Below, one piece after another: positions 2,383 through 58,363 of a DNA stretch of 64,000 bases. Numbering within the stretch: position 1 is the first letter of the stretch; every line of letters begins with the position of its first letter. The position numbers and the translations under genes were made by a program. The DNA is from an uncultured Clostridia bacterium (GTDB lineage: Bacteria; Bacillota; Clostridia; Christensenellales; UBA1242). Location: NCBI GenBank assembly GCA_947366895.1, contig CANBBP010000005.1, positions 1-64,000 of the forward strand, given 5' to 3'. The notes below the pieces were generated by a model, which saw only the letters and a list, made by a program, of their open reading frames with translations, searched no databases and was not told the origin of the DNA.

Positions 2383-3331
2383 TGGAAGAAGATAAAATAT
2401 CTGAAATTTTAGGCCAAGTGGCTCAATCAAAACCTTTTGCATGTGGTAATTCTAGAAAGTGTTATAATATATATGGTTTTGCTGTATTGCAGGAAAAGTC
2501 TGATGAAAAGGTTTCACTACTGCATTAAATTATCAAAGATTATCACAAATTTTTGTTCAACAAGGGGTTAATACTTCTTTAATTCATTTTGTGGATTTTC
2601 AAAATTGAAATTTAATTTATATTGAAGATTTAGTTAAGGGAAGTCCGGTTTATTATAGAGGTGCCAGTTCTTATTGTTTAGAGAATAATTTAAAAGAACC
2701 TAAAAGTTCAAGTAAATTATATGAAGAAATTAAAACAATGTTTATGCAGGAAAGGGGAATAGCTATTTCTGATTTTTTTGGATTTTCTAAAAATGAAAAG
2801 CGGGCTTTTTATAGCGAATTAGATAGTTATATTCAGCAACAAAGAGAACAAAACGCAGTTATAAGAGAAGAATATGAATATTGTAATAAGATAGATGAAG
2901 CAGTTAGGCAAGAAAATTTAAGCAAAGCCAAAACCTATGCAGGTTTGCAACAAGGTTTTTACGATAAATTTTTACAAGATTTAATGGTTGCTAGCAGGTA
3001 TAATCGAGGATTGGATTGTCATTCAGATAATTATTTATTTGATGAAGAAAGTGGATTTTCATTAATAGATTTAACAGTTTCTTTAAAAGAAGATAAAGAA
3101 CCTGAACCTATGTCTCAAGAAATTGTAGCTTTAGCAACAAGATATGCAAGCGACATATTAACTAGAGGTAGTGAAGATACTGCAGTTACAATGCAAATAC
3201 TTGAAAAAGTTGCAAACAGTGCAAAAACTTTTAATTTAGGTGATGAGCAAGATTTATGTTTACATTCTCCTAATGGTATGATTAACGTTAATGATATTTC
3301 TAGTTCATGTGATGACGGGCAAGAGCAATAA
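2383..3331 (+). pseudogene. Gene disrupted by about two frameshifts, possibly a kinase-like phosphotransferase of the CotS/APH fold; the intact 3' part is ORF 2738-3331
   Basis: Coding-like sequence is continuous across three frames (2383-2529, ~2517-2607, 2608-3331). The N-terminal fragment GNSRKCYNIYGFAVLQEK resembles a kinase-like nucleotide-binding loop. The 2738 ORF can be extended upstream in frame without an ATG. Confidence 0.35.
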
Positions 3332-3480: not shown

Positions 3481-4374
3481 TTATTTCATTGCTAAATCTA
3501 AATTACTATCAATAATAGGTTCAGGTTTTATTTCTACTAAAACAGGAAATTTAGGAGGTAAATTTTGTTCAGTTGATAAAGTATTTTCAGTAGTTCCTGC
3601 TTGAGGAAAAGTTTCCGCTTGTTGAATATCTATTAGTGTTGTAATATTTGTTTGCGGTATATCTGCTTGAGTAGTAACTTCATCTTGATTTGTGGTTTCT
3701 GCTTGAGGGGAAGGTTCTAAAATATCAACTTGTGAAGCAGGCTTATTAAAGGCATTGGTTAAATTGTATTCTTCAAGACTTCTTGATAGTGTAATTAAAC
3801 ATCTTCCAGTACCTTCACTATTATTATTTTTAGCATCTCTTATAGTTATGGTATCAGGATAACCATCAATAATTTCCTTATTTGCTTTTGGGGCAATAAA
3901 TACATTAGGAATGCCATTTGTATCGGCTTCTATCATAGCAAGGTCTTCTTTTGTATCTCCGCCTGTAATAAGTAAATTGGTTCCTTGTTCGCTAGGTAAG
4001 TTTAAAACAGCTTCAACACCATCTTTTTTAGATTGTGCTGGAGTTGTTAAAGGTTTTAAAGAGGCATCAGAGCAGTTATATATTTCTTTACATTTATCAC
4101 CAACTATGTAGTTAATTAAATTACCTGTATCACCTATGGCTAGTTTACAATACATATTGGCATAATAATTTATTATATTTACATCGTCTTTAATTCCTTC
4201 TACTTGGGCGGAACTTATGATTGCTATAGAAACTGTGCTTTTAGTAGCAAGAGCCATAGATAGTACACCTCTAAAGAAAGTAGGAAATCTTCCGCCATTT
4301 TCATGTTCTATACACTTTGGAATTAAATTATCTATTGTGTCATTATAATCTAAACACATTAAAATCTTATTCAT
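3481..4374 (-). CDS. HAD-superfamily hydrolase (Cof-like) with a C-terminal T/Q/P-rich low-complexity tail
   Basis: N-terminal DxD-like motif MCLDYNDTI and a distal GGDTKEDLAMIEADTNGI that resembles the HAD motif GDxxNDxxM. The C-terminal ~100 aa are T/Q/E/P-rich. Confidence 0.6.
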   Translation of the reverse strand: MNKILMCLDYNDTIDNLIPKCIEHENGGRFPTFFRGVLSMALATKSTVSIAIISSAQVEGIKDDVNIINYYANMYCKLAIGDTGNLINYIVGDKCKEIYNCSDASLKPLTTPAQSKKDGVEAVLNLPSEQGTNLLITGGDTKEDLAMIEADTNGIPNVFIAPKANKEIIDGYPDTITIRDAKNNNSEGTGRCLITLSRSLEEYNLTNAFNKPASQVDILEPSPQAETTNQDEVTTQADIPQTNITTLIDIQQAETFPQAGTTENTLSTEQNLPPKFPVLVEIKPEPIIDSNLDLAMK

Positions 4375-4430
4375 ATAATTATTTTATTATTCTTTTTAAA
4401 ATAAGTCAATACACAATTTTTTTTCCTATA

Positions 4431-5300
4431 AAAATCGAGTTTTTTATATATAAAACGATATAAACATATAAAACCTAAATCTTTTTTTATAATAAATCGA
4501 TATATTCATAATATATCTAATATAAACCTATAAAAAACGATATTTTATAAATTAATCTAAATTTATTTTAAATAAAACTCGATAATTTCATAAATAAAAT
4601 AAACTAATCTAAAAAAAATCGATATTTTCTAACAAAAACTTAAGTAATTCATTTAAAAAACTGATATATACATATAAAAACAAAATTAAACTAAAAAAAA
4701 TCGATATATTAATACAAAACTCGATATTTTCAATACTGCTTTTAAATATAAAAATCGATTTAATCTAAAATAATCTGATTTAATCTAAATAAACTCGATA
4801 TTTTCTAATAATACTTTAATTCCTTTTTTTAAAAAACGATATTTTTATAAATAAAATAATTCAATCTTATAAAAAACAATATATAAATAAAAAAAACGAT
4901 ATAATAATATATATATTTACAATAAAAAGCGATTTAATATAATAAAAGCTAAATAAATCTAACATAAACTAAAATAATCGTAAAAAACCTGATATATTCT
5001 AATACAACACGATATAATCTAATAAAACCTGTTAAAACATGTTTCAATTCTAAATAAATAGATATAATATAATAAAACTCGTTAAAACCTGATTTAATTA
5101 AAAATATATCGATATAAACTAATAAATCACGAAGTAATAATATAAAATCTTAATTATTCCAATAAAACCCGATATTTTTTAAATAAAGACTGAGTATTTC
5201 ATTTTAAAAAACTGATATATTCATAAAAAAACTGATATATTCTAAATAAAATCGATATATTAATATAAAATCCGATTTTTTACATTATTGGGTTTTTTCA
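4431..5300. repeat. ~0.9-kb AT-rich array of about 35-40 degenerate ~20-bp tandem repeats, consensus roughly AAAAYYGATATATTCTAATA
   Basis: Many spaced copies of aaaa(t/c)cgatat(a)tt, aaaactgatatattc, aaaacctgatatattctaat and similar at ~15-25-bp intervals. No ORF occupies the region. It lies between the HAD gene start and the rplJ promoter. Confidence 0.8.
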
Positions 5301-5383
5301 TTTTATATTTTAAAAATTCAAAAATATATTAAACTTAATTTACTAAATTGTTTATTTTCTTTTTAATTATACATAATAAAGTA

Positions 5384-5412
5384 TTGACAAAGCATAAGCA
5401 TTAATATATAAT
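5384..5412 (+). promoter_or_regulatory. Consensus sigma-A promoter of rplJ-rplL (TTGACA, 17-bp spacer, TATAAT)
   Basis: Exact -35 TTGACA at 5384-5389 and exact -10 TATAAT at 5407-5412. Confidence 0.75.
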
Positions 5413-5598
5413 TCTATTGTTTTAATAAATATCTTATTTATCAAAGACAGCAAGTGAAGGTAAACTTCGTAATTCTTTTTTAAAAAGTTCTTGCCGAGGT
5501 AAGTAATGAGGAAATTTTTTCTTTTAATTTAAGATAGTTTTACCTTGTACTTACTTTGAGTATAAGGTTTTTTTATTTTAACTTAAAAGGAGAAGTAG
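5413..5598 (+). promoter_or_regulatory. rplJ 5' leader, likely the autoregulatory L10 leader element
   Basis: ~185-nt untranslated leader between the consensus promoter and the rplJ ATG. Firmicute rplJ leaders are known L10(L12)4-binding regulatory RNAs, but the structure was not verified here. Confidence 0.45.
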
Positions 5599-6090
5599 AT
5601 GTCTAAAGAAGTTATAGAAGCTAAGAAAAAAGTTGTTGAAGAAATTAAAGAAAGATTTAACAATTCTAAAAGTGTAATTTTTGTAAATTATAAAGGTATT
5701 AATGTTGAACAAGATACTGCTCTTAGAAAATCTTTTAGAGAAAAAGATGTTCAATACAAAATTTATAAAAATAGACTTATTAAAATTGCTCTTGATGAAT
5801 TGGGTATCGCTAATTATGATGCTAAACATTTAGATGGTACAACTGCTATTGCTTTTGGTTCTGATGAGGTTGGGGCTGCTACTGTTTTATATAAAGCAAA
5901 AAAAGATTTTGGTGTTTTAGAAGCTAAGTTTGGTGTTATTGCTGGCGAAGTTGTTGATGAAGCAAAAATCGAAGCTCTTTCAAAAACTCCTACTAAAGAA
6001 GTTCTTATTGCAATGCTTCTTGGTATGCTTAATGCACCAGTTGCTGCTCTTGCAAGAGCTCTTGATGCTATCAGTAAAAAAGAGGCTTAA
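5599..6090 (+). CDS. rplJ: 50S ribosomal protein L10
   Basis: 163-aa ORF MSKEVIEAKKKVVEEIKERF... with RBS aaaaggag and rplL directly downstream. Confidence 0.93.
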   Translation: MSKEVIEAKKKVVEEIKERFNNSKSVIFVNYKGINVEQDTALRKSFREKDVQYKIYKNRLIKIALDELGIANYDAKHLDGTTAIAFGSDEVGAATVLYKAKKDFGVLEAKFGVIAGEVVDEAKIEALSKTPTKEVLIAMLLGMLNAPVAALARALDAISKKEA

Positions 6091-6210
6091 TTAAAATACT
6101 TATCCACTTTTTATTTTAAATTGTGTATAAGTTAAATTAAATTATTAAAAAATTATTTCTAAAAAATAATCAATTATAAAAAACAAAAATTTAAGGAGAA
6201 AAAAATTATT

Positions 6211-6582
6211 ATGGCAAATTTAGATAATATTGTTGAAGAAATTAAAAAATTATCACTTATTGAAGTAAGTGACCTTGTTAAAAAATTAGAAGAAGAATTT
6301 GGTGTTAGTGCAGCTGCTGCTGTTGCTGCTCCTGCTGCTGGTGCTGGTGCTCCTGCTGCTGCAGAAGAAAAAACAGAATTTACTATCGTTCTTAAAGAAG
6401 TTGGCCCAAATAAAATACCAGTTATTAAAGTAACTCGTGAAGCAACAGGCTTAGGCTTAAGCGAAGCAAAAGCATTAGTTGATGGTGCACCTTCAACAAT
6501 TAAAGAAAATGTTCCTACTGAACTTGCAAAAGAACTTGAAGCAAAATTCAAGGAAGCAGGTGCAACTGTTGAACTTAAGTAA
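6211..6582 (+). CDS. rplL: 50S ribosomal protein L7/L12
   Basis: 123 aa with an Ala/Pro-rich hinge ([21 protein letters not shown]) and the conserved C-terminal domain ...[10 protein letters not shown]. Confidence 0.95.
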
Positions 6583-6620
6583 TTTTTAAATTACAATTAT
6601 TTAAATATAAATTTAAAAAA

Positions 6621-6652
6621 AATCACAAAAATTAATTTGTGATTTTTTTTAT
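6621..6652 (+). terminator. Rho-independent terminator after rplL
   Basis: Stem aatcacaaa / tttgtgatt followed by 8 T. Confidence 0.7.
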
Positions 6653-6728
6653 AATTCAAAATATAATTTAAATAAGAAATTTAAAAATATTATTTATTAT
6701 TAAATATAAAATTATAATTTAAATATTA

Positions 6729-7046
6729 TTAAGGTTTTAAATATGTCATGCATTTTGGTTCGTTGGATAAAGCGGCATTTACTGTTATTCCATTTGAAAA
6801 GCATCTATTATCTTTATTAAATAAACAGTTAGCATTACAGGTTAAGCACATATCTTTTAAATGTCTATAGTCTGCCACTTTTGGTGGGTTTTCACTGAAA
6901 ATAAGGCTACTAAAATCTTTTGTGCCTTTTCCTTTTTCGTTTTGATATTCAAGACATTCCAATTTTTTGCTGATTGTTATTTTTTCGGCACAACATGTTA
7001 AATCTTTATTATATTTACAGTTTGTTTTTCTACATCTTAAATCCAT
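6729..7046 (-). CDS. Cysteine-rich DUF1540-like protein (two Cys-motif repeats)
   Basis: Two repeats of a C..C......C(C)...I.(I/V)......C motif in a 105-aa ORF. Confidence 0.5.
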   Translation of the reverse strand: MDLRCRKTNCKYNKDLTCCAEKITISKKLECLEYQNEKGKGTKDFSSLIFSENPPKVADYRHLKDMCLTCNANCLFNKDNRCFSNGITVNAALSNEPKCMTYLKP

Positions 7047-7244
7047 TTTTAATTTTTCCTTTTTTTGTTTTAATTATTATCTATTAAAATAAATTTAATC
7101 AAAATAATTTTAATAAGAAATTAAAAAATTGGTTTTTATTAAATTAAAAGATTTTTAAAATAAATTTTTAATTAATAAACCCGTTTGCATATTATTTCTT
7201 TTTGTGTTATCATAAAATTACTTAAAAAATAGGAGCATAAGAAA

Positions 7245-7682
7245 ATGAAAGTTTTATTATTACAAGATGTTAAGGGTACAGGAAAAAAAGGTGAAATTGT
7301 AAATGTTAATGATGGCTATGCTAACAATTTTTTAATTAAAAAGAATTTAGCAAAAACCGTTGATAATTCAGTTTTATTAGAAAAAGCAAGTAAGGAAGCT
7401 AGTGTTGAAAGAAATAAGGCATTAGATAAACAAGCTGCAGAAAAAAAAGCACAAGAATTAAAAGGGAAAACTTTTAAAATAAGTGCTAAATTAGGAGATA
7501 ATGGTAAAATGTTTGGTGCAATTACTTCTAAAGAAATTGCAGAAGCAGTAACCAATGCTGGAATAGATTTAGATAAAAAACAAATAGATTTAGAAAGTAA
7601 TATAAAAGCAACTGGGGAATATACTATAGAAGCAAAGTTATATACTGGAGTAATAGCAAGATTTAAAATTCTTGTTGGATAA
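7245..7682 (+). CDS. rplI: 50S ribosomal protein L9
   Basis: [37 protein letters not shown]... is the typical L9 N-terminus; 145 aa. Confidence 0.92.
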
Positions 7683-7797
7683 AAATAGAGTAAAACTATA
7701 TTTTAATTAGATAAAATAATTAATATTGATTATTTATTTAAATTAATAAATTAATTAAATATTACTAATATTAGTATTTAATATAAATTATAATATT

Positions 7798-8678: not shown

Positions 8679-9668
8679 TTAACTTTCTTCTATATTTTCT
8701 ATCTTATTTTCATTATTAAATTTTATATTATAAACCTTTGCGTATTTTACTGGCTTTGAATAATAAATCAATGCTATTTCTTCTGGGTTGTATTCAGGTG
8801 ATAAGGTTTGATAAGGCTTTTCAAAATTTCCAAAAAACTTGTTTAGATGGTTGTTTGATAATTTACTTGATAGGGCAGGGGAAAGATAGTTTCTAGCTAG
8901 TTTAAAATTTTTATTTTTTAATGCTTCAAAAAAAGCAAAAGGAACAAACTCTTTAATTTTGGTTATTGTTGGTTTTTGGTTGTTGTATGCTAATTCTTTT
9001 GTTTTATTAAATGCATTTTCAAATGAGTATGTTGTAATTTCTCCGTGATTTGCGTAGTCATGTAAATTTTTATAAGTAGTTATTGTGTTTTCATTTCCTT
9101 CTAATAAATCAACTTCTTGCATTTCTTGTAAAAAGTATTTATTGTTTTCGTATAAAATATGACAAGTAACAAATTTTGAATTTTGAGTGCGAAAATATAT
9201 TAAAATATTACCATCTTTAATTTTTGCTTCCATATCTGTTACTTTACAATTATTTCTAAAATCTAAATAGTTTGTAGAATTTTCTATTCGACAATTAAGA
9301 TAATTATTACTAAACCAACTTATGGTATGAGGGGTGTTTTGAGAACGGATTACTTTTGTTTTAAGACCAAACCCAACTGGTGAATTTGCAAAGATAAAAG
9401 GATTAACTTCCAATAAAAAATTATTATTTGGAAAACGAGTTAATGTTAGGTTACTCATATTAGTTTGAAGTGAGTTTTCATTGAAAGGTTCTAAAATGCA
9501 CGAAAATGGCAAAGAGTTTAACTCTTCTGAAAATGATGGGTAAAAAGATAAGGCGGTTTTATCTTTTAAAATAAATGAATAGGTCTTATTTTTTATAAGA
9601 CTTTTTTGATTATCATAGTAGTTTAATACGCAATCAAAACTAGGCTTTATGTGTAAGTAGAAATCCAT
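8679..9668 (-). CDS. Hypothetical protein, N/Y/F-rich, 329 aa
   Basis: Long ORF with no recognisable motif. Confidence 0.5.
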   Translation of the reverse strand: MDFYLHIKPSFDCVLNYYDNQKSLIKNKTYSFILKDKTALSFYPSFSEELNSLPFSCILEPFNENSLQTNMSNLTLTRFPNNNFLLEVNPFIFANSPVGFGLKTKVIRSQNTPHTISWFSNNYLNCRIENSTNYLDFRNNCKVTDMEAKIKDGNILIYFRTQNSKFVTCHILYENNKYFLQEMQEVDLLEGNENTITTYKNLHDYANHGEITTYSFENAFNKTKELAYNNQKPTITKIKEFVPFAFFEALKNKNFKLARNYLSPALSSKLSNNHLNKFFGNFEKPYQTLSPEYNPEEIALIYYSKPVKYAKVYNIKFNNENKIENIEES

Positions 9669-9776
9669 ATATATCTCCTTATTAATATGAATATGACAAG
9701 CATTTATTGTTTTATGTATAGAAATAAATTTCTAGATAATAATTACTAAGAAGTTAAATTTATTTAAGGAGATTTT

Positions 9777-10559
9777 ATGAATAAAAAAGAGGACAGGCAA
9801 AGAAAGATGCTAGAAATTGTTAAAAAATGTATAGACAATAATTATAATCTTGACAAGACCTTTGATATGATTTCTAGTAAATTGAAACTTAAAAAAGGTA
9901 GTGCAAAAAATTATTATTATACTTTTATTAAGTCTATTAAAAATGACCCTAACAAATATCAAAAATTGGATATAGAAAAATTATCAAAAAATAATTTTAA
10001 TAGATTTGAAGAAACAGAAATTAATGAACTTGTAACTATAGTTGATAATAATTTAATGAAAGGTATCAGTGTAAGGCAAACATGTTTAGAACTTGCAAAT
10101 AATGATGCAAAGGTAATGTTAAGATTACAAAACAAATATAGAAATTGTAAGCATAATGGGAGCAAAAAAAATATGGGAAACAAAGAAAATATTATTAATA
10201 TAGATTTTGCAAAACAAAAGTTAAATAAAAAAATTAGTGATAGTGATATTAATGCCTTATTTATGGGACTTGTAAAAATAGTTAAAAAGAGTGCTTTAGA
10301 TAGTGCTAATCAAGAATTAAAAGTTGAATGTAATGAGGCAAATGAAAATTTTAGACAAACTTTAATAGATTTAAATAAAAAAGAAGAAGAACTTAAAATA
10401 ATGCAAGAAGTAAATAGAGAACTTAATTTAAAAGTAGAGGCACAAAAAGAACAAATTTGTTCGTTGTTGCAAAAACTTTCAAGTAGGAGGCTTAAAAGCT
10501 TAGAAAAGAAAAGCGATTATAAAACTATGAAATTAAAAAAGTTTGATTTAAGTAAATGA
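9777..10559 (+). CDS. Hypothetical coiled-coil protein, 260 aa
   Basis: K/E/N-rich with heptad-like segments in the C-terminal half. RBS ggagattttATG. Confidence 0.5.
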   Translation: MNKKEDRQRKMLEIVKKCIDNNYNLDKTFDMISSKLKLKKGSAKNYYYTFIKSIKNDPNKYQKLDIEKLSKNNFNRFEETEINELVTIVDNNLMKGISVRQTCLELANNDAKVMLRLQNKYRNCKHNGSKKNMGNKENIINIDFAKQKLNKKISDSDINALFMGLVKIVKKSALDSANQELKVECNEANENFRQTLIDLNKKEEELKIMQEVNRELNLKVEAQKEQICSLLQKLSSRRLKSLEKKSDYKTMKLKKFDLSK

Positions 10560-10651
10560 TTTATTAAATAATTAAATATATAATTGCTAGTAAGGATTTA
10601 AAAAAAATAAGGTTATAGTCACTAACATTTGAAACTAGCGGAATAATTAAA

Positions 10652-10681
10652 GAGAACTCTATAGTTTTAGAGTTCTTTTTC
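10652..10681. terminator. Hairpin with T-run just inside the left end of the island
   Basis: Stem gaactcta / tagagttc, loop tagttt, then ttttt. Confidence 0.45.
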
Positions 10682-10713
10682 TTGTGGCTTTATGCCGCGA
10701 AAGGTTCTTTACT

Positions 10714-10837
10714 CAGGGCTTAAGAATGGAACATAATAGACAAAAGGCAAAAAGAAAAAAGCGAAAGTATCTTCGCTTTAATAGCATAATGCTTGTTTCT
10801 TTGTCTTATTTGCAGAGATTATCATTCTAAGCCCTGT
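10714..10837. repeat. ~124-nt long imperfect palindrome (nested inverted repeats) downstream of the recombinase gene
   Basis: Outer arms cagggcttaagaatg / cattctaagccctg (15 bp, 1 indel). Inner arms aatagacaaa / tttgtcttatt. Central hairpin agcgaa-agtatc-ttcgct. Confidence 0.6.
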
Positions 10838-10871
10838 GTCAAGAACATCGTGGAATAAATTAGCCACAAGT

Positions 10872-12374
10872 CTAAATAACCACATAAATATCATAAGTAT
10901 TGGTTTTAGTTTTAATAATGCCACCTTTGAAGTGTCTTTCGGTTGTGTAAGTTTCTGTAAATACTTTTTGAGTTATCGGCTCATTACTTGCCATTTGGTT
11001 TATTGCGTAATTTATACCTATTTCAATTTTGTTCTCATAAACTTTCACAAACTTTATGAATAATTCAAACGCCATATTTGGACATTGTTTCATAGTGTAT
11101 TTGAAGAAGTTTTGTATATCTTCTTTTGTTAGTTCATATCTCTCTTTAGATTGCTCTATAATAACTTTCTCTTGCAAGTCTTTCTTTGCGTTTTCAAGTT
11201 CTTCTAATCTTGCTTTTGTTGTTTCGGTAAATATGCCTTTTTCAATAGCTGACATAATATTTGCAATGGATGTATTTACTCGTTGTAAATCGGTTTTTAA
11301 TGCGTTTAATGGTGTATTGCTACCAATCCTTTTCTTATGCACTTCAAATATCTTTTCAGTCAATATTTCAAGGTTTTTAGGTGTATTGAATTGTTCTATT
11401 AAGAATTTGTCTACAACACCCTCAATAAAGTCCTTATGCAATCTTTTATTATGACAGTTATCTTTCTTTGTTCCTATGCAATTATAGTATCTCAAATGTT
11501 CGCCATTAGAAGATATTGCAGATACTGGATACATTTTCTTATTGCAATAACCACAATATATTTTGTCTTTTAGTTTAAATATTTCATGATTATCTTTTCT
11601 GCAACCATATCTATTTTTATCCATTCTTTCTTTAACCTTTGTGAATAGTTCTTTTGTTATTATTTGTGGGTAGATATTGTCATATCGTTTGCCATTTATC
11701 TCATATTCGCCAGTGTATAGTTTTCTTTGTAGAAAATGTCTTATTGTTTGTGGTATAAACTTTTGACCTTTATTTGTAATGCTTTCATTCTCTAAATCTT
11801 TAGATATTTGCAATATTGTTTTGCCACTTGCATAATCTTTGTAAATTCTATTTAATATTTCACTTTCTTCTTGGTTTACTTTTAACATTTTGTTTTCTTT
11901 AATGTAGCCATAAGGAACACTGCCAATACAATGTCCTTTCATTCGTGATTCGTGTAGTCCACGACTTACTTTTTGTGCTAATTCTTCACTAAAGTATTGG
12001 TTCATTCCTTCTAGCAAACTTTCAAGTAAAACTCCTTCTGGTGTTTCTGGTATATTTTCCATTGCAGATAAAAGTTTAATTCCATTATCTTTTAAGTGTT
12101 TTCTATGAATTGCTGACTCGTATTTGTTTCTTGCAAATCTGTCTAGTTTGTAAACTAATACATAGTCCCATTTCTTGTTATTGCTATCTTTTAGCATTCT
12201 TTGAAAAGATTCTCTTTCATCTGTTGTTCCACTGATTGCTCGGTCAATGTATGAATCAACGATTATTATATCGTTTCTTTTCGCATAGTCTTGGCAGACA
12301 TGAACTTGTCCCTCTATGCTTTGTTCTGTTTGGTTTGTGCTAGAGTATCTAGCGTAGATTACTGCTGTTTTCAT
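10872..12374 (-). CDS. Large serine recombinase (resolvase catalytic domain + recombinase domain + zinc-ribbon region), 500 aa
   Basis: N-terminal MKTAVIYARYSSTNQ... carrying the catalytic Ser/Arg resolvase signature. Its length and the Cys-rich segment (CGYCNKKM ... YYNC ... C.N.K) fit large serine recombinases. Confidence 0.85.
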   Translation of the reverse strand: MKTAVIYARYSSTNQTEQSIEGQVHVCQDYAKRNDIIIVDSYIDRAISGTTDERESFQRMLKDSNNKKWDYVLVYKLDRFARNKYESAIHRKHLKDNGIKLLSAMENIPETPEGVLLESLLEGMNQYFSEELAQKVSRGLHESRMKGHCIGSVPYGYIKENKMLKVNQEESEILNRIYKDYASGKTILQISKDLENESITNKGQKFIPQTIRHFLQRKLYTGEYEINGKRYDNIYPQIITKELFTKVKERMDKNRYGCRKDNHEIFKLKDKIYCGYCNKKMYPVSAISSNGEHLRYYNCIGTKKDNCHNKRLHKDFIEGVVDKFLIEQFNTPKNLEILTEKIFEVHKKRIGSNTPLNALKTDLQRVNTSIANIMSAIEKGIFTETTKARLEELENAKKDLQEKVIIEQSKERYELTKEDIQNFFKYTMKQCPNMAFELFIKFVKVYENKIEIGINYAINQMASNEPITQKVFTETYTTERHFKGGIIKTKTNTYDIYVVI

Positions 12375-12554
12375 TTTTTCTAAACTCCTTTATATTTTTT
12401 ATTTGTCTTTCGACGGAGCGAAACTAAACGAAAGCGGATTCTTGTTTTAAACTTTTAAATATATATATTTTTTAGTCAAGGTTTGCGAAAAGCAATACAC
12501 TTTAACCTTGACTAAAAAGAGTTTTCGTTTACGCTCCACAAGGCGAAAGATAAA

Positions 12555-13442
12555 TTAGTTGGTTGTTCTCAACTGAGATATTGTTTCTTTACTTACTTTT
12601 CCCACCAAGACACCTTCATCCCAACAATTAAAGTCATCAAATAAAAGTAGTTTTCTATCTTCAATTCCAATAGTGCAAACAATATCACTATCCATAATGT
12701 CTGATATGAAATAGGTCGGTAGTCCTTTTGAGTAAACAATTTTTTCTTCGGTCTTTGCTAAATATTTCATTATATAGGCGATAGATTGTGCCAAAGAATT
12801 TGGGGCTATTGGCTCAAAGTCGTTCCTTCCAAATCTATCTAAAAAATATTGGTTTTGATATGTCGTTTGCATTTGATGTGTTTTTGTGCTGAAATCTCGT
12901 TTTTCTATAAACTCTAAATTGTTGTTTGGTATATACACAAGTGTGTGAAAGTGTAGCCTTTTATTTATTGGACTTCGTTCCCAAACACCTGCATATTTCC
13001 AACTTTTGCGATTAGATAAATGTTTTAGACAATTAGACAACTTCGTTTTAAATGACTCTTCGTTGTGCTTTTTGTCATCATAAGTAAATGTGCAAAAATA
13101 TGACCATTCTTGTAAGTAAACTTTTCTTACAAATCTTTTTCTTCTTTCAATTAAATTTCTTAACTTTCTGTCTAAATTAACTTTTACAAACTCTCTTAAT
13201 CTTTCTTCGTTCTTTATATATGGCTTTAAACTTTCAATAATTTCGATGTTTCTTTCTCGTGGCTTTTTATCTAAATTTTCTCTATATGTCTTTTCAAAAA
13301 GTTTGTTTAAATTTGTTGTCGATGTTTCTAAATTTTCTTTCTTAATAGTGTTAGTTTTCCGTTTTTTGTGTGGTTGTAATTCTTTGGGTATTGCAATGTA
13401 ATGGCTACCATCGAAATACACTTTTGTTTCTCCAAATGGCAT
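12555..13442 (-). CDS. Rolling-circle replication initiator of the HUH superfamily with a phiX174-type double-tyrosine motif
   Basis: Motif 1 FTFTYDD, motif 2 HFHTLVY (HUH), and motif 3 AYIMKYLAK, which is Y-x-x-K-Y-x-x-K as in phiX gpA (YVAKYVNK). Confidence 0.7.
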   Translation of the reverse strand: MPFGETKVYFDGSHYIAIPKELQPHKKRKTNTIKKENLETSTTNLNKLFEKTYRENLDKKPRERNIEIIESLKPYIKNEERLREFVKVNLDRKLRNLIERRKRFVRKVYLQEWSYFCTFTYDDKKHNEESFKTKLSNCLKHLSNRKSWKYAGVWERSPINKRLHFHTLVYIPNNNLEFIEKRDFSTKTHQMQTTYQNQYFLDRFGRNDFEPIAPNSLAQSIAYIMKYLAKTEEKIVYSKGLPTYFISDIMDSDIVCTIGIEDRKLLLFDDFNCWDEGVLVGKVSKETISQLRTTN

Positions 13443-13443
13443 A

Positions 13444-13599
13444 TTACACCTGCCTTTTGGATGGTTTCTCTTTTATTTTGCGGTGTTGCATAATGTGATC
13501 TAGTAGTGCAAGATAAAACGATTCATCTAAGCCACCAACATCAATTAAATTTTGAGAGAAATCCTTATTGTTTGATTTGTTTTTAAAAATGTTTTGCAT
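13444..13599 (-). CDS. Small 51-aa ORF immediately upstream of, and overlapping, the rep start
   Basis: RBS aaaggagg 9 nt before the ATG. Its stop overlaps the rep start region (translational coupling). No known motif. Confidence 0.3.
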   Translation of the reverse strand: MQNIFKNKSNNKDFSQNLIDVGGLDESFYLALLDHIMQHRKIKEKPSKRQV

Positions 13600-14107
13600 T
13601 TTTCATTGCCTCCTTTTAGTTTTTTGGCAATTAAAAAAGGCATAGAAAGAAAATACTTCTTCTACGCCTTTGAAATGCAACCACTGTTTCTTAAACGAAA
13701 ATCTCGGCTTGCCATTTTTGCGTGTCTTTTTCAATTACTTTTGTAAATGTATCACAAACAATTTCAAAATAAAATGATATTACTTGCCCCTTAGTAGTCA
13801 TCTTATTGATTTTGATTGCTAACACTTGACACTATGTTAGCAAGTTGTTCGTTAAAATACAACGAACTAACTTAAACAAAACTTCTAATAAATCCGTAGT
13901 AAACCCTAACTAAATTTAAACTGACTTAAAGTAAAACCCAAATTTTTTAAGTGTTTGTGAAATATTTACGAGTAGAATATCTCACAAAAATCTCGGAATT
14001 ACAAGATGGTTTACTGGTAGTTTACAAGTAATAAACAGGTATTTTGCGGACAAAATGCGAACTTTTGCAATGCATTTACACTTAATAGCCACAAAAACAT
14101 TAAAAAG

Positions 14108-14136
14108 TTGACGGTCTAACTGAAACTTTTTAATAT
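14108..14136 (+). promoter_or_regulatory. Candidate sigma-A promoter (TTGACG, 17-bp spacer, TAATAT) facing the hairpin cluster and R-M operon, bracketed by a 14-bp direct repeat
   Basis: -35 at 14108-14113 and -10 at 14131-14136. Direct repeats aatagccac(a/g)aaaa at 14084-14097 and 14146-14159. Confidence 0.4.
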
Positions 14137-14236
14137 CTTCTATATAATAGCCACGAAAAAGCCATTTTGAGCGGGTGTTTTTACAAAAAAATTTATAAAC
14201 TTAAAAATTTATGTTAAAAAGCAAAACAAAAGAGAA

Positions 14237-14398
14237 AGTGGGCGAAGAAAAAAGTGGAGGTGCGATAGCCTGCGGCACTCCACTTTTTGCCCACTTTCGT
14301 TTTGCGAAAGGTTTGTTTATATTTAGTTGTTTTAGTTTAGGCGTGTGCTTGTCTGCTGGAGCGAAGCGACAGCACTTGTATCAAGACAAGCACACGCC
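14237..14398. other. Cluster of three GC-rich stem-loops inside an AT-rich island; candidate rolling-circle origin (dso or sso)
   Basis: Nested hairpin with outer stem aagtgggc/gcccactt and inner stem aaaaagtggag/ctccacttttt (14249-14259 / 14278-14288). Hairpin ctttcg-ttttg-cgaaag (14294-14310). 15-bp perfect inverted repeat ggcgtgtgcttgtct / agacaagcacacgcc (14340-14354 / 14384-14398). Confidence 0.45.
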
Positions 14399-14514
14399 TG
14401 AGTGCCATTTTATTTAAAATTTTATAAAATAAGTCAACGATTGCTTGCAAAAATCATATCATTTATGTTATATTAAAAGTAAAGAAAGTAAAGATTTTTT
14501 AAGGAGCAAAAAAT

Positions 14515-14724
14515 ATGATAAAGCAAGCGAAGTTATCAAATAAATGCCAAATAACAGTTCCGAAAGAGGTTAGGAAATTGTTGGAGATTGATAAGGGAGA
14601 TGATGTCGTTTTTTATATTGAAGATAATGAGGTAAAACTAACCAGTATTAAAAACATTAATCTAAAACTAAAGAACCCAAAAAAGAAAACAACAATGAAA
14701 AAAGGAGAAAATAACAATGGATAA
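14515..14724 (+). CDS. AbrB/MazE/SpoVT-family small DNA-binding protein, 69 aa; first gene of the R-M operon
   Basis: Swapped-hairpin signature QITVPKEVRKLLEIDKGDDVVFYIEDNEVKL. RBS aaggagc. Overlaps the hsdM start by 8 nt. Confidence 0.7.
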   Translation: MIKQAKLSNKCQITVPKEVRKLLEIDKGDDVVFYIEDNEVKLTSIKNINLKLKNPKKKTTMKKGENNNG

Positions 14725-16444
14725 ACAAAAGATTGACAACAAGGCAAGTTTGATATGGAGCATCGCAGATAAACTTCAAGGAGATTATAAGCCTCATGAA
14801 TATGGAGATGTTATTCTTCCATTTACTGTGCTTAAAAGGTTTGATAGCGTCCTTGCCGACACTAAAGATAAGGTTATTAAAGTAGCATCTGAATATCCAG
14901 TTATTACTCCACCTGTTGACAAACTTCTTAAAAGTGTAGCAAAACAACAAATATACAATATAAGCAAATATAATTTTAAAAATTTGCTTGACGACCCTGA
15001 TAATATAAAAATCAACTTTAAAAAATATATTGCTGGCTTTTCTGAAGAAGTAAAAGATATCTTAAGTAAAGAGCATGGGTTTGAGTTTGATAGACAAATT
15101 GAAAAACTAGACAATGCGGGTTTGTTATATTTGATAATTGCCGAATTTAATACCGAAAAGGCAGATTTACACCCTAACAAAGTTAGCGATATTGAAATGG
15201 GGTATATTTTTGAGGAAGTAATTAGAAAATTTAGTGAAACATATCAGGCTGATGCTGGAGAATTCTACACCCCAAGAGAAATTATTGATTTAATGGTTAA
15301 TTTACTTTTAAATAATGAAGAATTAAGTGAAAACAATAAGGTAATACAAATATATGACGGAGCGTGTGGCACTGGTGGGATGTTGTCTATCGCCTACGAA
15401 CGAATCAAGGAACTAAATAGTACAAATGCCGTTTTTACAAATGGGCAAGAAATTAACCCTCAAACTTATGCTATTTGTAAAAGTGATATGCTACTTAAAG
15501 GTGGTAAAAATTCAACAATTAAATTTGGTAGTACCCTTTCGAACGATCAATTTTCTGAAGAACAATTTGATTATATTATTATGAATCCACCTTTTGGTAG
15601 AGAATGGAAAAAAGACAAGGAAGAAGTTGAAAAGGAATATAAGCGTGGTTTTGCTGGTAGATTTGGTGCAGGATTGCCTGCAGTTAGTGATAGTCAAATG
15701 TTATTTTTGCAAAATGCTATTTCAAAAATGAAACCAAGTGGAAGTAGAGTTGCAATAATACATAATGGTTCTGCTTTATTTGCTGGTGATGCAGAAAGTG
15801 GACCAAGTGAAATTAGAAGATATATAATTGAAAATGACTTGCTTGAAGCCATTATTCAATTACCAAACAACATCTTTTATAATACTGGAATAGCTACATA
15901 TATTTGGCTATTGTCAAATAAAAAATCAAAAGAAAGAGTTGGTAAAATTCAACTTATAAATGCAAATGAAATGTTTGTAAAGCGACGCAAGGTTTTAGGC
16001 GAAAAGCGAAATGACATTTCAAAGACGCAAATTGAGGATATAACCAAACTTTATGATGATTTTAAAGAAGCCGATAACAGCAAAATATTAGACAACGAAG
16101 ATTTTAAGTATTTTAAAGTTGTAGTTGAAACGCCGATTAAAGATGAAAAAAGCAACATTATATTAGATAAAAAAGGCAAAAAACAACCTGATATAAATTT
16201 AAGAGATTTTGAGATTATACCAGCGAAAGAAAATATTGAAGCATTTATGCAAAAAAATGTTTATCCTTTCAACCCTGATGCTTATATAGATAAAGACAAA
16301 ACTAAAGTTGGTTATGAAATTCCTTTTACAAGGTTATTTTATAAATTTATTCCACCTACTCCATCAAAGGCTATCTTTGCTGAAATTAAAGAGCTTGAAA
16401 AACAAGAAACCACTTTAATGAAGGAGTTATTTAGCAATGATTAA
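14717..16444 (+). CDS. hsdM: Type I restriction-modification system, methyltransferase subunit
   Basis: N6-adenine methyltransferase motif IV NPPFG (IIMNPPFGREW) and a SAM-binding region DGACGTGGML; 575 aa. Confidence 0.9.
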   Translation: MDKQKIDNKASLIWSIADKLQGDYKPHEYGDVILPFTVLKRFDSVLADTKDKVIKVASEYPVITPPVDKLLKSVAKQQIYNISKYNFKNLLDDPDNIKINFKKYIAGFSEEVKDILSKEHGFEFDRQIEKLDNAGLLYLIIAEFNTEKADLHPNKVSDIEMGYIFEEVIRKFSETYQADAGEFYTPREIIDLMVNLLLNNEELSENNKVIQIYDGACGTGGMLSIAYERIKELNSTNAVFTNGQEINPQTYAICKSDMLLKGGKNSTIKFGSTLSNDQFSEEQFDYIIMNPPFGREWKKDKEEVEKEYKRGFAGRFGAGLPAVSDSQMLFLQNAISKMKPSGSRVAIIHNGSALFAGDAESGPSEIRRYIIENDLLEAIIQLPNNIFYNTGIATYIWLLSNKKSKERVGKIQLINANEMFVKRRKVLGEKRNDISKTQIEDITKLYDDFKEADNSKILDNEDFKYFKVVVETPIKDEKSNIILDKKGKKQPDINLRDFEIIPAKENIEAFMQKNVYPFNPDAYIDKDKTKVGYEIPFTRLFYKFIPPTPSKAIFAEIKELEKQETTLMKELFSND

Positions 16445-17687
16445 GATGAAAGAAAGTGGTGTTGAATGGATTGGACAAATTCCTGAAGACTGGAAATTAA
16501 AAAGATTGAAAATAGTTTTACAGGAAAGAAATGAAAATAATAATCCTGTTAAAACAGATTATATATTGTCATTGACAAATGATAAAGGAGTTATTCCATA
16601 CTCTGAAAAAGGCGATATTGGTAATAAATCTAAAGATGATATTACTGGGTATAAGTTAGCTTATCCAAATGATATTGTGCTAAACAGCATGAATGTTGTT
16701 ATTGGTTCGGTCGGTATTTCCAACTATTTTGGAGCTGTAAGTCCAGTTTATTATATGTTAAGACCAAGAAATAAAAATGACGATGTAAGGTATTATAATT
16801 ATATTTTTCAGACAAAAGAATTTCAAAATAAGTTAAAGGGTTATGGGAATGGAATTCTAGAAATAAGAATGAGAATTCAGATGTTAAAATTAAACACTGT
16901 AGAGTTACCTGTTCCATCAAGTGAAGAGCAAGTAAAAATCGCTGATTTTCTTGATAAAAAATGTTCGCAAATTAATGCACTTATAAAAATTCAAGAAAAA
17001 GAAATTGAAAAGATTAAACAATATAAACAAGCCGTTATAAGCGAAGTTGTAACAAAAGGCTTAGACCGTAGTGTGAAAATGAAAGATAGTGGCGTTGAAT
17101 GGATAGGCGAAGTCCCTGTAGATTGGGAAGTAAAAAAATTAAAATTTTGTTATAAAAACAGAAATACTAAGTATACATTAGGAGAATTCCCATATATTGC
17201 ATTGGAAAATATAGAATCTTTTAGTGGGAAATATGTTTACACTGAGACAAATTCAAATTATTTACTTGAAGGTTCAATTATTGCGACTAAGGGAGATGTG
17301 ATATTTGGTAAGCTTAGACCGTATTTAACAAAAGCATTTCTAATTGAATCTGATTCTTGTGTATCTACAGAATTTGCAGTATTTTATTCAAATGAGAATA
17401 ATTCAGAATTTTTAAAATATTTATTTTTAAGCTATAGATTTATAGACATAATAAACTCTTCTACATATGGGACAAAGATGCCAAGAGCGAATATTGATTT
17501 TATAAATAATCTAGAGATAGCTTTACCAAATTTAAAAACCCAGCAAGAAATATCGGAGTATCTTGAAAAAAAATCAAATGAAATAGATAACTTAATACAA
17601 ATAAAGAAATTTAAAATTCAAAAACTTCAAGATTATCAAAAATCTTTAATATACGAATATGTAACAGGTAAAAAGAGGTGTATTTAA
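16437..17687 (+). CDS. hsdS: Type I restriction-modification system, specificity subunit
   Basis: Two target-recognition halves, each preceded by the conserved repeat MK(E/D)SGVEWIG(Q/E).P.DW. Overlaps hsdM by 8 nt and hsdR by 10 nt. Confidence 0.85.
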   Translation: MIKMKESGVEWIGQIPEDWKLKRLKIVLQERNENNNPVKTDYILSLTNDKGVIPYSEKGDIGNKSKDDITGYKLAYPNDIVLNSMNVVIGSVGISNYFGAVSPVYYMLRPRNKNDDVRYYNYIFQTKEFQNKLKGYGNGILEIRMRIQMLKLNTVELPVPSSEEQVKIADFLDKKCSQINALIKIQEKEIEKIKQYKQAVISEVVTKGLDRSVKMKDSGVEWIGEVPVDWEVKKLKFCYKNRNTKYTLGEFPYIALENIESFSGKYVYTETNSNYLLEGSIIATKGDVIFGKLRPYLTKAFLIESDSCVSTEFAVFYSNENNSEFLKYLFLSYRFIDIINSSTYGTKMPRANIDFINNLEIALPNLKTQQEISEYLEKKSNEIDNLIQIKKFKIQKLQDYQKSLIYEYVTGKKRCI

Positions 17688-20805: not shown

Positions 20806-23800
20806 ATGCAAAATATATTTATAGGAAAAACAAATATTGATTGTGTTACAAGTTTAATAGAAAAATTAAAACAAAATTATTTAACAAATAAAAATGCACA
20901 TCATATTTTTATAGTACCAGATAGAGTATCTGTTTTAACGGAGATTAAAATATTTGAAGCTCTTAATATTGAAAGTACTTGCTCAATAGAGGTTCAAACT
21001 TTATCAAGAATTGCTTCACAGGTTGTTGATAATGTAAGAGTTATTCCTAAAACTTCTAGTTGTATGCTTTTTCAAAAACTTTTAAAACAATATAGAAATG
21101 ATTTAAAATGTTTTAATAAAAAGATAGATATTGATTTAGCTTCAACATTATATAAAACAATCAGCCAGTTTAAGAGTTGTAAAATTGCTCCTGAGGAAGT
21201 AAATGTAACAACTCAAAATAAACTATTAGAAGATAAATTAAACGATATTGCTATTCTTTATTCTGCCTATCAAAGACACTTAAGAGAAAATGAATTGCTT
21301 GACAGCATGGATAGACTTGATTTTGTAATAGATAAAATTTCACAAAATGAAAAGATAAAAAATAGTTTTGTATATATAGGTTTTTTTGATGCTTTTACTT
21401 TGCAAGGTTATCAAATTATAAGTGGCATTATTAATAGTTGTATAGAATTTAATATAGGCTTAACCAGCACCGATAATAGTATTAATGAACATATTTATGA
21501 TAATGCTTTAAAAGATAATATTTTAAAAATTATGGAGGCACAAAATAAAGAACCTAATATAATTTTTTGTAAAGAAAATGTTAGCGGTCAATTTAAGTAT
21601 TTGCAAGATAATTTATATGGCTTTAATTATTATCCATTAAAGTTAAAAGAAAGTAATATTCGCTTATTTGAAGGAAAAACATTTGAAGAAGAAGTTTTAT
21701 TTTGTTGTAGTAATATCAAAAATTTAATTGAAAGTGGAAAATATAAGTTTAAAGATTTTGTTGTGGCTGTTCCTAATTTATTGGAAAAACATAATGAAAT
21801 AGAAAGAATTTTTAATTCTTATAATTTTAATTTTTATATAGATATTTCTGAAAATCTTGCTAATAGTATTCTTGTTAGATTTATTGACCAACTTGTTCAA
21901 GTTGTGTTAGAAAACTTTTCAAGGGTTAGTGTATTATCGTTTATAAAAAATAAATTATTAAATTTGGATTATAATGATATTGAAGATTTTGAAGATTACA
22001 TAATTAAATATAATTTAAATAATGGTTATCAAATAAAAAATAGTAAAATAGAAAACAGCAAATTTTATTCAGGTTTTAATAATTGTAGAAATGCTTTATT
22101 TGATATGACTAGCGAATTTATTGATGATATTAAAAATAGTAAAACCTATAATGATTTTATTTTGAGTTTAGAGAAAATTCTTTTAAAATTAAACATACCT
22201 GAAAAACTTGTTGATTATACTATTTATTACACAAGTATAAATAATATTAAACAGGCCAAATTATTTGAGCAATATTATAATAATTTAACAACCGTTTTAG
22301 ATTCATTGCGAGAAATTCTTGGCAATGAGGAATGTGATTTTAAATTGTTTTATTCCACTTTACTAAGTGGAATAAGTGAAACAAAAATTTCGACTCCACC
22401 TTTATCTACAAATGCTATATTTATAGGTGATGCAAGTACTAGCTTTTTTGATAATTCCAAAGTTTATTTTATTCTTAATGCTGATGAAAAAAGTTTTCCT
22501 TTTTCTATGAATGATTGTGGTATTATTAGTGATAAAGAGATAAATCAATTAAATGATTATTACAAACTTGAACCTAGTATACAAAGTATAAATAGCAAAG
22601 AAAGATTTAAAAGTTTTGAACTTATATTAAAAGCAAAAGAAAAGTTATTTATAAGTTATAATTTTAGTGTTTCACCAAAAAGTAAAATATTAGATGATAT
22701 ATCTAAAATGTTTATAATTGAAGAAAGCAATAATAAATTTAAAACTTTACAATTAGATAATTATAATAGACAAGATTTTTATGTTATTAATAACAATTTA
22801 TCTACTGCAAGTAATAATCTTATTTCTAAACTTCGTGAAGTTTATGATGGCAAAGGTGATGCAGATGAAAAGGTTGCTATTTTATTTAATGCTGTAAATA
22901 GAACTAAAAAGGTTGTTGACCTTAAAAAGTTTGACTTTAAAAATATTATAAATTTAAGTAATAATGTTTTTTTTACAAAAGATAGCATAAGTGTCTCACA
23001 GGTAGAAAATTATATGACCTGTCCGTTTATTCATTTTGTGCGATTTGGTTTAAATTTAAAAGAAAAAGATATAGGAGAATTGGATAACTTAAATATCGGA
23101 AATATATTACACAATGTAGCAAAGGTATTTATTGATAATAATTCTTTACCATTAAAATCTGAAAAAGAGATAGGCGTTAATGTTGAAAAAGCATTTAATG
23201 AAGTTATAAATAGAGATGTTTATGAAAGTGTAAAAAATAATTTATTAAATAAAGTATTAATAAAAAATCTTTTAAGTGAGGCTAAAAGATTTTGTAGTAT
23301 TTTAAATTATCAAGCAAAGTTTTCTTCCTTTAAATCTTTTAAAACGGAGATTAGATTTGATGATAATGGTATTATAAAAAGTTTAAAAATTAATTTGGGA
23401 AATCGTATATTAAAGTTAGTTGGACAAGTTGATAGAATTGATGTGTTTGAAGATTATTTTAGAATTATAGATTATAAAACAGGAAAGTGCGATACCTCTT
23501 TAAAAGAACTTTTCTTTGGTAAAAAAGTTCAGTTAGAAGCTTATTTAAAAGTAATAGAAAGTAGTTTAAAGTTAAAACCTGCAGGTGCTTATTATATGCC
23601 TGTAAAAAGTGGTATTGCAGATGAAAATAGTTCTTTGCAATTAAAGTATCAATTAAAAGGTAGAACCATTGATAATGAAAAAATAATTGTTGCTAGCGAT
23701 AATAGATTAGCAGGTGAAGAACTTACAAGCGACATTATAGACATAAAGTATAATAAAAAAGATGAAAAAGAAGAAAAAAAATTAAGTGCTTATTCTAAAG

Positions 23801-24057: not shown

Positions 24058-24061
24058 GTTT

Positions 24062-56875: not shown

Positions 56876-57018
56876 AAATTATACCTATAAAGAGTGTGTT
56901 AGGGACAAGCCCGATTGTAGCACACAGCAACCTGTTTATATTAACAAGGTGCTAATACTTGATTGATGGGATATTAATTTAATTATGAGAAAAATCCTAT
57001 CTATAAATCTAGATAGGG
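56876..57018 (+). ncRNA. SAM-I (S-box) riboswitch with intrinsic terminator upstream of metK
   Basis: Conserved S-box blocks tta.agggac.agcccgat..gcaacc and aaggtgctaa, followed by terminator cctatcta/tagatagg plus a T-run. Confidence 0.7.
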
Positions 57019-58186: not shown

Positions 58187-58363
58187 ATATTTTTATATTA
58201 ATTAAAAAATAATTTTTGTTATTTTTTAAAAATAATTATTTAAAATATAAACGTTAAAAAATTTAATTATAAAAAAGTACTTCTTAAAAAATTTGCAAAA
58301 ATATGTAAATATTTGTATATATTTTTAAATGCTTGCAAACAATATTTTTAGGAGTATTTTTTT

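Follow-up and report, generated by a model that had tools for sequence, protein, structure and literature searches.

A degenerate 20-bp tandem array upstream of rplJL in an uncultured Clostridia bacterium, probably a decaying lineage-specific minisatellite

INTRODUCTION

Short repeated sequences make up several well-described kinds of bacterial locus. CRISPR arrays contain near-identical repeats of 23 to 55 bp that alternate with unique spacers about as long as the repeats, and cas genes usually lie close by. Replication iterons are phased direct repeats that lie beside the gene for their own initiator protein, and partition centromeres, which include sopC of F (12 repeats of 43 bp), parC of pSK41 (20-bp repeats), parC of R1 (11-bp iterons) and tubC, are repeat arrays that adjoin and autoregulate an operon encoding a centromere-binding protein and a motor. 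UP elements and phased A-tract activators carry A/T-tracts in a phase of about 10 to 11 bp, from about −40 to −100, and show strong intrinsic curvature. The C-terminal domain of the RNA polymerase alpha subunit reaches less than 100 bp upstream of the −35 hexamer, as is established for UP elements. The known curved promoters of Firmicutes have three to five tracts, spaced about 10 to 11 bp apart and directly abutting the −35 hexamer; plc of Clostridium perfringens, for example, has three phased A-tracts upstream of its promoter.

Bacterial minisatellites, or VNTRs, are direct repeats of 10 to 100 bp that share a single orientation and differ in copy number among strains. The VNTR loci that are used for typing are usually short and near perfect, and copy-number polymorphism is their operational hallmark. 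Deletion bias normally clears junk from the spacers of bacterial core genomes. In Portiera from Bemisia tabaci (26% GC), short tandem repeats, mostly of 7 bp, have proliferated in a lineage-specific manner and intergenic regions have become enlarged (PMC3673631).

Here, we analyze a repeat array in a 64-kb stretch of DNA (64,000 nucleotides, hereafter the window) from an uncultured Clostridia bacterium. Retrieval based on ribosomal protein L10 placed the organism among uncultured, low-GC, Christensenellales-like Clostridia metagenome-assembled genomes (MAGs); its own GC content is about 27%. An earlier note on the window had drawn attention to the array and offered three possible roles for it, namely a landing pad for a DNA-binding protein, an extended curved enhancer, and a minisatellite expanding by slippage. 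We conclude that the array is unusually long for a spacer in a bacterial core genome and is not conserved, and that nothing found points to a function. The defining features that we tested for CRISPR arrays, for iteron origins, for partition centromeres and for UP elements do not fit it, chiefly because of its position or because the cognate genes are missing from its neighborhood.

RESULTS

A degenerate tandem array fills much of the spacer upstream of rplJL

The array runs for about 860 bp upstream of the L10 operon and occupies the promoter-distal part of the spacer between the divergent promoters of rplJ and of a gene that we call HAD-like. The features of the locus are as follows.

3481..4374, minus strand: 297-aa HAD-like gene; residues 1 to 213 form a HAD-like Rossmannoid domain (confident prediction) and residues 214 to 297 a disordered tail
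4381..4409, minus strand: promoter-like site of the divergent HAD-like gene, TTGACT-17-TAAAAT
4431..5284, plus strand: degenerate tandem array of about 44 units in a single orientation, with the 20-bp consensus AAAAATCGATATATTCTAAT and a GC content of 15.5%
5384..5412, plus strand: rplJL promoter, sigma-70-type consensus TTGACA-17-TATAAT, 12 of 12 positions
5423..5582, plus strand: ribosomal protein L10 leader (Rfam RF00557, 54.5 bits), with a terminator-like hairpin (5542–5568) at its end
5599..6090, plus strand: rplJ (ribosomal protein L10), followed by rplL

Base autocorrelation of the array peaked at lags of 20 (z = 6.4) and 40 (z = 7.0); lags of 10, 30, 50 and 60 gave smaller peaks. Six control AT-rich spacers, drawn from the window and from relatives, had no 20- or 40-bp peak (z ≤ 3.1 at the array's peak lags), and the maximum for the region 13450–14710 was z = 4.2, at lag 11. 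Wraparound alignment to AAAAATCGATATATTCTAAT tiled 4431–5300 as 44 rows and scored 364, compared with −90 ± 26 for composition-matched shuffles. Both measures lie far beyond chance, and the degenerate, AT-rich repeat of about 0.9 kb that the earlier note placed at 4431–5300 is thus real. Its periodicity is borne out by autocorrelation, TRF and wraparound alignment. The start of the array stood; its last recognizable unit ends near 5284, and the original count of 35 to 40 units becomes about 44 unit-lengths, 24 of them clearly recognizable.

Within the alignment, identity per column ranged from 57 to 93%, with 33 inserted and 39 deleted bases. The units abut without unique spacers at this level of column conservation, and the flanks contain no cas gene; as the note had stated, the array is not a CRISPR. 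A core of the form A-tract-Y-GAT-W-T is kept by 24 of the approximately 44 units, all on the same strand: every one of the 24 plus-strand GAT triplets in 4381–5320 sits in the context A-tract-(C/T)-GAT-(A/T)-T, and TTCTAAT often trails this core. Successive cores are spaced by 20 bp (nine times), 30 to 34 bp, 40 to 43 bp (eight times), 50 bp or 60 bp. The unit is a partial palindrome, AAAATCGAT(AT)TTT, centered on TCGA. The sole inverted repeats that we found were products of this partial palindrome, and transposon ends, which the note had also discounted, were rejected on that ground.

The array is noncoding, as the note had it; the region holds no open reading frame (ORF) longer than 32 aa and just two of that length, both on the minus strand. 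An RNA element was likewise rejected, since an Rfam search of the array matched no family even at E ≤ 1 and folding of the array gave no structure signal relative to shuffles (z = −0.6 on the plus strand and −0.2 on the minus strand). Promoter-like sites were not enriched within the array (17, with 16.2 expected), which led us to reject hidden promoters as well.

The same locus is present in contigs from two metagenome samples (ERZ14235887 and SRR20747176) at 99.98 to 100% identity, which excludes an assembly artifact. Copy number was equal in the window and in these contigs, a result that is little informative given that they are 99.98 to 100% identical overall. When L10, L7/L12 and the HAD-like protein were looked up by exact protein sequence, near-identical contigs alone came back, with the same array in them. 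At one end of an ENA contig that is otherwise 99.98% identical (L001), positions 1–46 could not be aligned to window positions 3728–3773, which encode part of the tail of the HAD-like protein; this mismatch could reflect strain variation in the low-complexity tail or else an artifact at the end of the contig.

The flanks of the array carry a plausibly HAD-like gene and rplJL

Proteins of the HAD superfamily have a Rossmannoid fold and four motifs: I (DxDxT/V), II (S/T), III (K) and IV (GDxxxD or similar). The 297-aa protein had no Pfam match and no PDB sequence match. Its AlphaFold (AF2) model had a pLDDT above 90 for residues 1 to 213, and the best Foldseek matches were HAD-superfamily phosphatases, although weak ones (E ~1e-3, TM 0.33 to 0.5). 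Two invariant segments, LDYNDT and GGDTKED, fit HAD motifs I and IV, with Asn at the motif I Asp+2 position. The label "HAD gene" given to this flank stands by a weak fold match and motif inspection only, and we describe the protein as plausibly HAD-like. Nothing suggests a role for it in DNA binding.

The family is very small, with five clusters (P0001 to P0005) out of 5.8 billion. Where HAD proteins have the canonical DxDxT, it shows an invariant L-D-x-N-x-T, and its disordered C-terminal tail is Q/T/E-rich and poorly conserved. We considered whether the array might be linked to this gene family and rejected the idea: the genes of P0002, P0003 (in the relative L003) and P0004 adjoin no array, and the contig of P0005 is too short to tell. 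On the other flank, the rplJL locus (5599–7682) has no rplKA before it and no rpoBC after it; a DUF1540 gene, the L9 gene and a Zn-peptidase gene lie downstream. Two large ORFs at 20806–27562 encode AddB and AddA, not RNA polymerase.

The array is absent from syntenic relatives

Two relatives share the arrangement of this locus. In L003, the order is 16S, HAD-like gene (minus strand), spacer and rplJ, and its partial 16S sequence is 96.5% identical to that of the window; in L016, the order is HAD-like gene, spacer and rplJ. The L10 protein of the window is 85.3% identical to that of L003 and 85.9% identical to that of L016, and the latter two are 89% identical to each other. Measured between the start codons of the HAD-like gene and rplJ, the spacer spans 1224 bp in the window, compared with 788 bp in L003 and 370 bp in L016. 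In more distant relatives, another gene lies upstream, and the spacers, of 200 to 560 bp, lack the motif.

Neither the L003 nor the L016 spacer showed 20-bp periodicity, and their wraparound alignments gave z ~0, compared with 12.7 for the array. A weight-matrix scan of the two spacers reached at most 8.2 bits, and local alignment of them to the array was no better than that of shuffles (fractions 0.38 and 0.84). On these grounds we rejected the 788-bp spacer of L003 as a fully decayed array (periodicity and wraparound score) and dropped the sequence TAGATTTCTCTAATAAA, which lies at the array's place in the L016 spacer, as a proto-unit (matrix score and alignment). The comparison of orthologous spacers that the earlier note had called for thus shows an array that is simply present in the window and absent from L003 and L016.

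Since both syntenic relatives lack it, the array arose after the split from species with about 85% L10 identity. L003 and L016 retain the …AAAGTATTGACA… rplJ promoter and the L10 leader, and the HAD-like gene is conserved in these array-less relatives. Judging from these comparisons, the array would not be needed for rplJL expression or for either promoter.

Nested block duplications and decay point to a minisatellite

TRF resolved several periods nested within the array: 20 bp, 42 bp (2.5 copies), 50 bp (2.9 copies) and 74 bp (2 copies), at 73 to 85% matches. Nested periods at this level of identity are typical of repeated block duplication. The main blocks are listed below.

4450..4715, plus strand: sub-block with a higher-order period of 40 to 42 bp, in which an intact and a degenerate unit alternate about six times
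4672..4817, plus strand: two copies of a 74-bp block (77% matches), which form a segmental duplication within the array
4984..5126, plus strand: 50-bp block (20 + 20 + 10) in 2.9 copies (73% matches)
5206..5270, plus strand: youngest-looking copies, 3.2 units of 20 bp (82% matches)

The duplicated 74-bp and 50-bp blocks have an intact core in one copy opposite a destroyed core in the other. Where the G of the core was lost, A replaced it in 11 of 15 cases. The G/C columns of the unit were equally retained in the wraparound alignment (C7, 64%; G8, 66%; C16, 57%). Outside the core, units without GAT had an identity to the consensus of 0.67, compared with 0.80 for units with GAT (Mann-Whitney p = 0.001), a comparison to be read with the caveat that the alignment of degenerate units is less reliable. 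The core decays along with the rest of the unit and hence bears no sign of selective retention. The pattern looks like age-dependent, AT-biased neutral decay; selection for the core would have produced the reverse, with cores preserved amid decayed surroundings.

We also asked how common tandem repeats are in the surrounding DNA. TRF reported 16 arrays in the 64-kb window, compared with 2.9 ± 1.8 in composition-matched shuffles, an approximately fivefold excess. Small tandem repeats with periods of 13 to 25 bp and 2 to 6 copies lie in AT-rich spacers at 880–942, 1949–1990, 6650–6725, 7693–7788, 32058–32103 and 58185–58242; in the repeat at 880–931, the copies are still 100% identical. Given this excess and the small degenerate repeats in neighboring spacers, the genome segment is generally prone to tandem duplication.

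Of the three roles offered in the earlier note, a minisatellite expanding by slippage fits best, with the nested duplications, the age-correlated decay, the absence from relatives and the excess of repeats in the window all in its favor. We therefore consider that the array is probably a lineage-specific, decaying minisatellite that arose from slippage and unequal exchange and is probably near-neutral. What we observed is that the units are arranged in tandem, that blocks of them were duplicated, that relatives lack the array and that the units decay in the manner described; from this we infer slippage as the mechanism and near-neutrality as the outcome. A segment of about 20 bp, AT-rich and in the promoter-distal spacer of two divergent genes, would have been amplified head to tail as replication slipped and copies recombined unequally. 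In later events, blocks of greater size (42, 50 and 74 bp) would have been duplicated, and the copies would subsequently have decayed under the AT-biased mutation of the genome. Through such growth, the HAD-like and rplJ promoters, once a few hundred base pairs apart, would have come to be separated by about 1 kb. The product may be regarded as a moderately curved tract of 15.5% GC, which non-specific, AT-preferring nucleoid proteins could occupy.

The array shares with minisatellites its head-to-tail 20-bp units in a single orientation and its history of duplication in higher-order blocks. Like VNTR loci and the Portiera repeats, it consists of direct repeats in a noncoding spacer that are found in a single lineage and are absent from close relatives, in an AT-rich genome (about 27% GC here and 26% in Portiera) with an enlarged intergenic region and nested duplications; as in Portiera, the genome segment carries a general excess of short tandem repeats (PMC3673631). 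It differs from both in its 20-bp unit, its approximately 44 units and its heavy decay. Among the points that count against the minisatellite reading, 44 or so units over 860 bp are unusually long for a spacer in a bacterial core genome, and the 10.2-bp phase of the cores (described below) and the partial palindrome are features of protein-binding arrays.

If the minisatellite reading is true, the locus would be a clean and datable case of a core-genome spacer that gained almost 1 kb by tandem amplification despite deletion bias, in an uncultured, low-GC lineage of gut Clostridia. It would also serve as a warning against a regulatory reading of phased, AT-rich repeats beside strong promoters, and the array could act as a strain-typing marker for this rare species.

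Helical phasing is accompanied by only moderate predicted curvature

The GAT cores and A-tracts had a best long-range period of 10.2 bp, with a Rayleigh power for the cores of 12.0 out of a maximum of 24, sustained over 830 bp. The 34 A-tracts (at least four A) in the array were significantly periodic at 10.2 and 19.8 bp, with a power of 8.3 compared with 6.0 for the 95th percentile of the null and 7.5 for its maximum. The units of the array thus lie roughly on one helical face, and the note was right that A-tracts recur every two helical turns or so. This phase is automatic for 20-bp tandem units with variants of 41 bp and multiples of 10 bp, however, and so is not evidence of selection.

We estimated curvature with a wedge model, whose parameters and values are approximate. 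The mean end-to-end ratio over 126 bp was 0.88 for the array; the remainder of the window gave 0.946, shuffles gave 0.937 ± 0.016, and a control with phased A-tracts gave 0.36. In curvature, the array falls within the top ~7% of windows. Its most curved spot is its left edge, beside the HAD-like promoter (4381–4520; ratio 0.66), which ranks first or second for curvature in the whole 64 kb.

The periodicity of the A-tracts, the bend in excess of that of shuffles and the pronounced curvature beside the HAD-like promoter are what would be expected if the array were an intrinsically curved upstream activating region, similar to an extended UP element, for the rplJ promoter, the HAD-like promoter or both. 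We regard this as highly unlikely, because the predicted curvature is only moderate next to that of the control and is itself approximate, the array stops about 100 bp before the rplJ −35 hexamer and so beyond the reach of the alpha C-terminal domain, array-less relatives have the same consensus promoter, and a length of 860 bp exceeds by far the lengths of known curved activators. The array (end, ~5284; −35 start, 5384) also has one tract per 20 bp and a ratio of 0.88, which depart from the phase, position and curvature of UP elements and phased A-tract activators. It resembles the phased A-tract promoters of Firmicutes, such as plc, in having helically phased A-tracts upstream of a strong promoter in a low-GC member of the Clostridia, but it differs from them in its single tract per 20 bp, its 860-bp length, its distance of about 100 bp from the −35 hexamer and its moderate predicted curvature. 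Accordingly, the strongly curved DNA that the note had predicted was not recovered by the wedge model (0.88, compared with 0.36 for the control), and its proposal of an extended curved enhancer for rplJ does not agree with the moderate curvature, with the gap of ~100 bp to the −35 hexamer or with relatives that keep promoter and leader without the array.

The repeats resemble binding sites but lack a cognate system

A different reading of the phased cores is that the array is a landing pad, with about 24 phased, operator-like sites for a sequence-specific protein that covers the helix along one face. The array would act in the manner of plasmid iterons or of partition centromeres (sopC, parC, tubC), or as a silencing or insulating filament between divergent promoters. 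In keeping with this reading, the core is information-rich relative to the local background, with G in 24 of 24 ascertained units and conserved flanking positions; all units have a single orientation; the 20- and 41-bp spacings equal two and four helical turns, with a long-range period of 10.2 bp; the unit is a partial palindrome centered on TCGA; and three lineage-specific genes of the Xre helix-turn-helix (HTH) type lie 2 to 3 kb away and, like the array, are absent from L003.

We nonetheless judge a landing pad to be unlikely. The array is flanked by the HAD-like gene and rplJ, with no neighboring gene of the par, rep or DNA-binding kind; both syntenic relatives lack the array; the motif is unenriched elsewhere in the 64 kb; and the core has decayed in step with the remainder of the unit. 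The palindromes that precede the Xre genes (…GCGTTAA…TTAACGC…) are, by eye, unrelated to the unit. Finally, no similar array was found in the plasmid, phage and viral searches or among the at least 120 metagenome matches listed.

These searches made use of several descriptions of the motif. With a weight matrix built from the 24 array units, 24 matches of at least 12 bits fell in the array and one elsewhere on that strand of the 64-kb window, although the score within the array is partly circular, as the matrix was derived from it. Across the remaining 63 kb, matches numbered 19 compared with 22.2 expected at 8 bits, 5 compared with 7.7 at 10 bits and 2 compared with 2.6 at 12 bits. The search for further copies that the earlier note had recommended, carried out over the 64-kb window, thus yielded no occurrences above chance. 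A "distant" blastn search against plasmids and phages gave no match to the array, with a low-complexity filter that may mask the query. A 3-unit pattern found chance matches and unrelated repeats alone in viral contigs, and a 2-unit pattern found single chance matches, and no array, among the at least 120 matches listed from metagenome contigs. Three contigs of giant-virus MAGs carry perfect (AATCTGATAT)n tandem repeats of 10 bp at the contig end (L023, 1–120; L060, 1–105; L031, ~6590–6690); these are unrelated to the array and merely fit the degenerate search pattern. The unit is unlike the consensus sequences of the DnaA, ParB, Spo0A and CodY boxes. A replication origin or terminus was rejected, as cumulative GC skew rises monotonically through the window.

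The comparison with known binding arrays gave a similar outcome. The array shares with partition centromeres such as sopC, parC and tubC its AT-rich repeats in the same orientation, spacings of integer helical turns (20 and ~41 bp), a partial dyad in each unit and a position upstream of a promoter. It differs in being chromosomal, in having no adjacent parA, parM, tubZ or centromere-binding protein gene, and in having 4 to 10 times more units than known centromeres; these units are degenerate, and the array is not conserved in relatives. No Pfam match of the ParA/ParM/TubZ or ParB/ParR/TubR type was found among the genes at 2.7–16.4 kb, hsdS, hsdR, AddAB and two large ORFs. The phasing of an iteron origin is present, but the flanks are the HAD-like gene and rplJ, and the nearest Rep gene lies 7 kb away and belongs to the rolling-circle REP_ORF2-G2P family, a type that is not known to use iteron arrays.

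A more specific version of the protein-binding idea can be formulated for the chromosome. The array might be a nucleoprotein platform in which some 24 phased, partially palindromic sites (AAAAWYCGATWTTT) on one helical face are coated by a putative lineage-specific DNA-binding protein; the resulting filament or superhelix could insulate or silence the stretch that separates the HAD-like gene from rplJL, a highly expressed operon, or form a centromere-like anchor near the ribosomal gene cluster. We hold this to be quite improbable. A possible candidate for the binder of the AAAAWYCGATWTTT sites is a nearby lineage-specific protein of the Xre HTH type. If, and only if, a specific binding protein were found, the locus would become a mechanistically interesting chromosomal iteron- or centromere-like array of unprecedented length.

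Nearby insertions and a possible mobile origin

Three paralogous small Xre/HTH_3 genes lie at 1018–1236, 1710–1913 and 2069–2272, each behind its own palindrome of the GCGTTAA…TTAACGC type, and an ORF at 2738–3331 encodes 197 aa with no Pfam match. Together, the Xre trio and this ORF make up an insertion of about 2.8 kb between rrs and the HAD-like gene that L003 lacks. Farther away, positions 8679–20647 are a probable integrated island, which contains a large serine recombinase (10872–12374), a REP_ORF2-G2P rolling-circle Rep (12555–13442), a small AbrB-like ORF near 14516, a complete type I restriction-modification (R-M) system, hsdM/S/R (14717–20647), and two ORFs of 329 and 260 aa without Pfam matches.

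The presence of lineage-specific insertions nearby (the Xre genes at 1 to 2.3 kb; the serine recombinase, rolling-circle-type Rep and type I R-M system at 10.9 to 20.6 kb) and the lack of a detectable unit seed in the spacers of relatives would both fit the capture of part of a mobile element between the two genes, for example of an iteron or origin region left by a plasmid or phage. Yet the array is bordered neither by a gene of a mobile element nor by terminal inverted repeats or a target duplication; the blastn search against plasmids and phages came back empty; and the Rep that is nearest, at 7 kb, is of the rolling-circle type, which is not known to use iteron arrays. We rate a mobile remnant as highly unlikely.

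Other features of the window

The first 481 positions of the window, like positions 1–480 of L003, hold the 3' end of a 16S rRNA gene. A terminator-like hairpin and then protein-coding genes come next, in place of tRNA or 23S genes; rrs thus appears to be unlinked from rrl in this clade. ORFs of 1485 aa (51490–55947) and 726 aa (27696–29876) had no Pfam match at E ≤ 1e-5, and the latter contains short in-frame tandem repeats at 28786–28893 and 29517–29574. A SAM riboswitch (RF00162, 51.7 bits) lies at 56882–56991, upstream of an ORF at 57089–58186.
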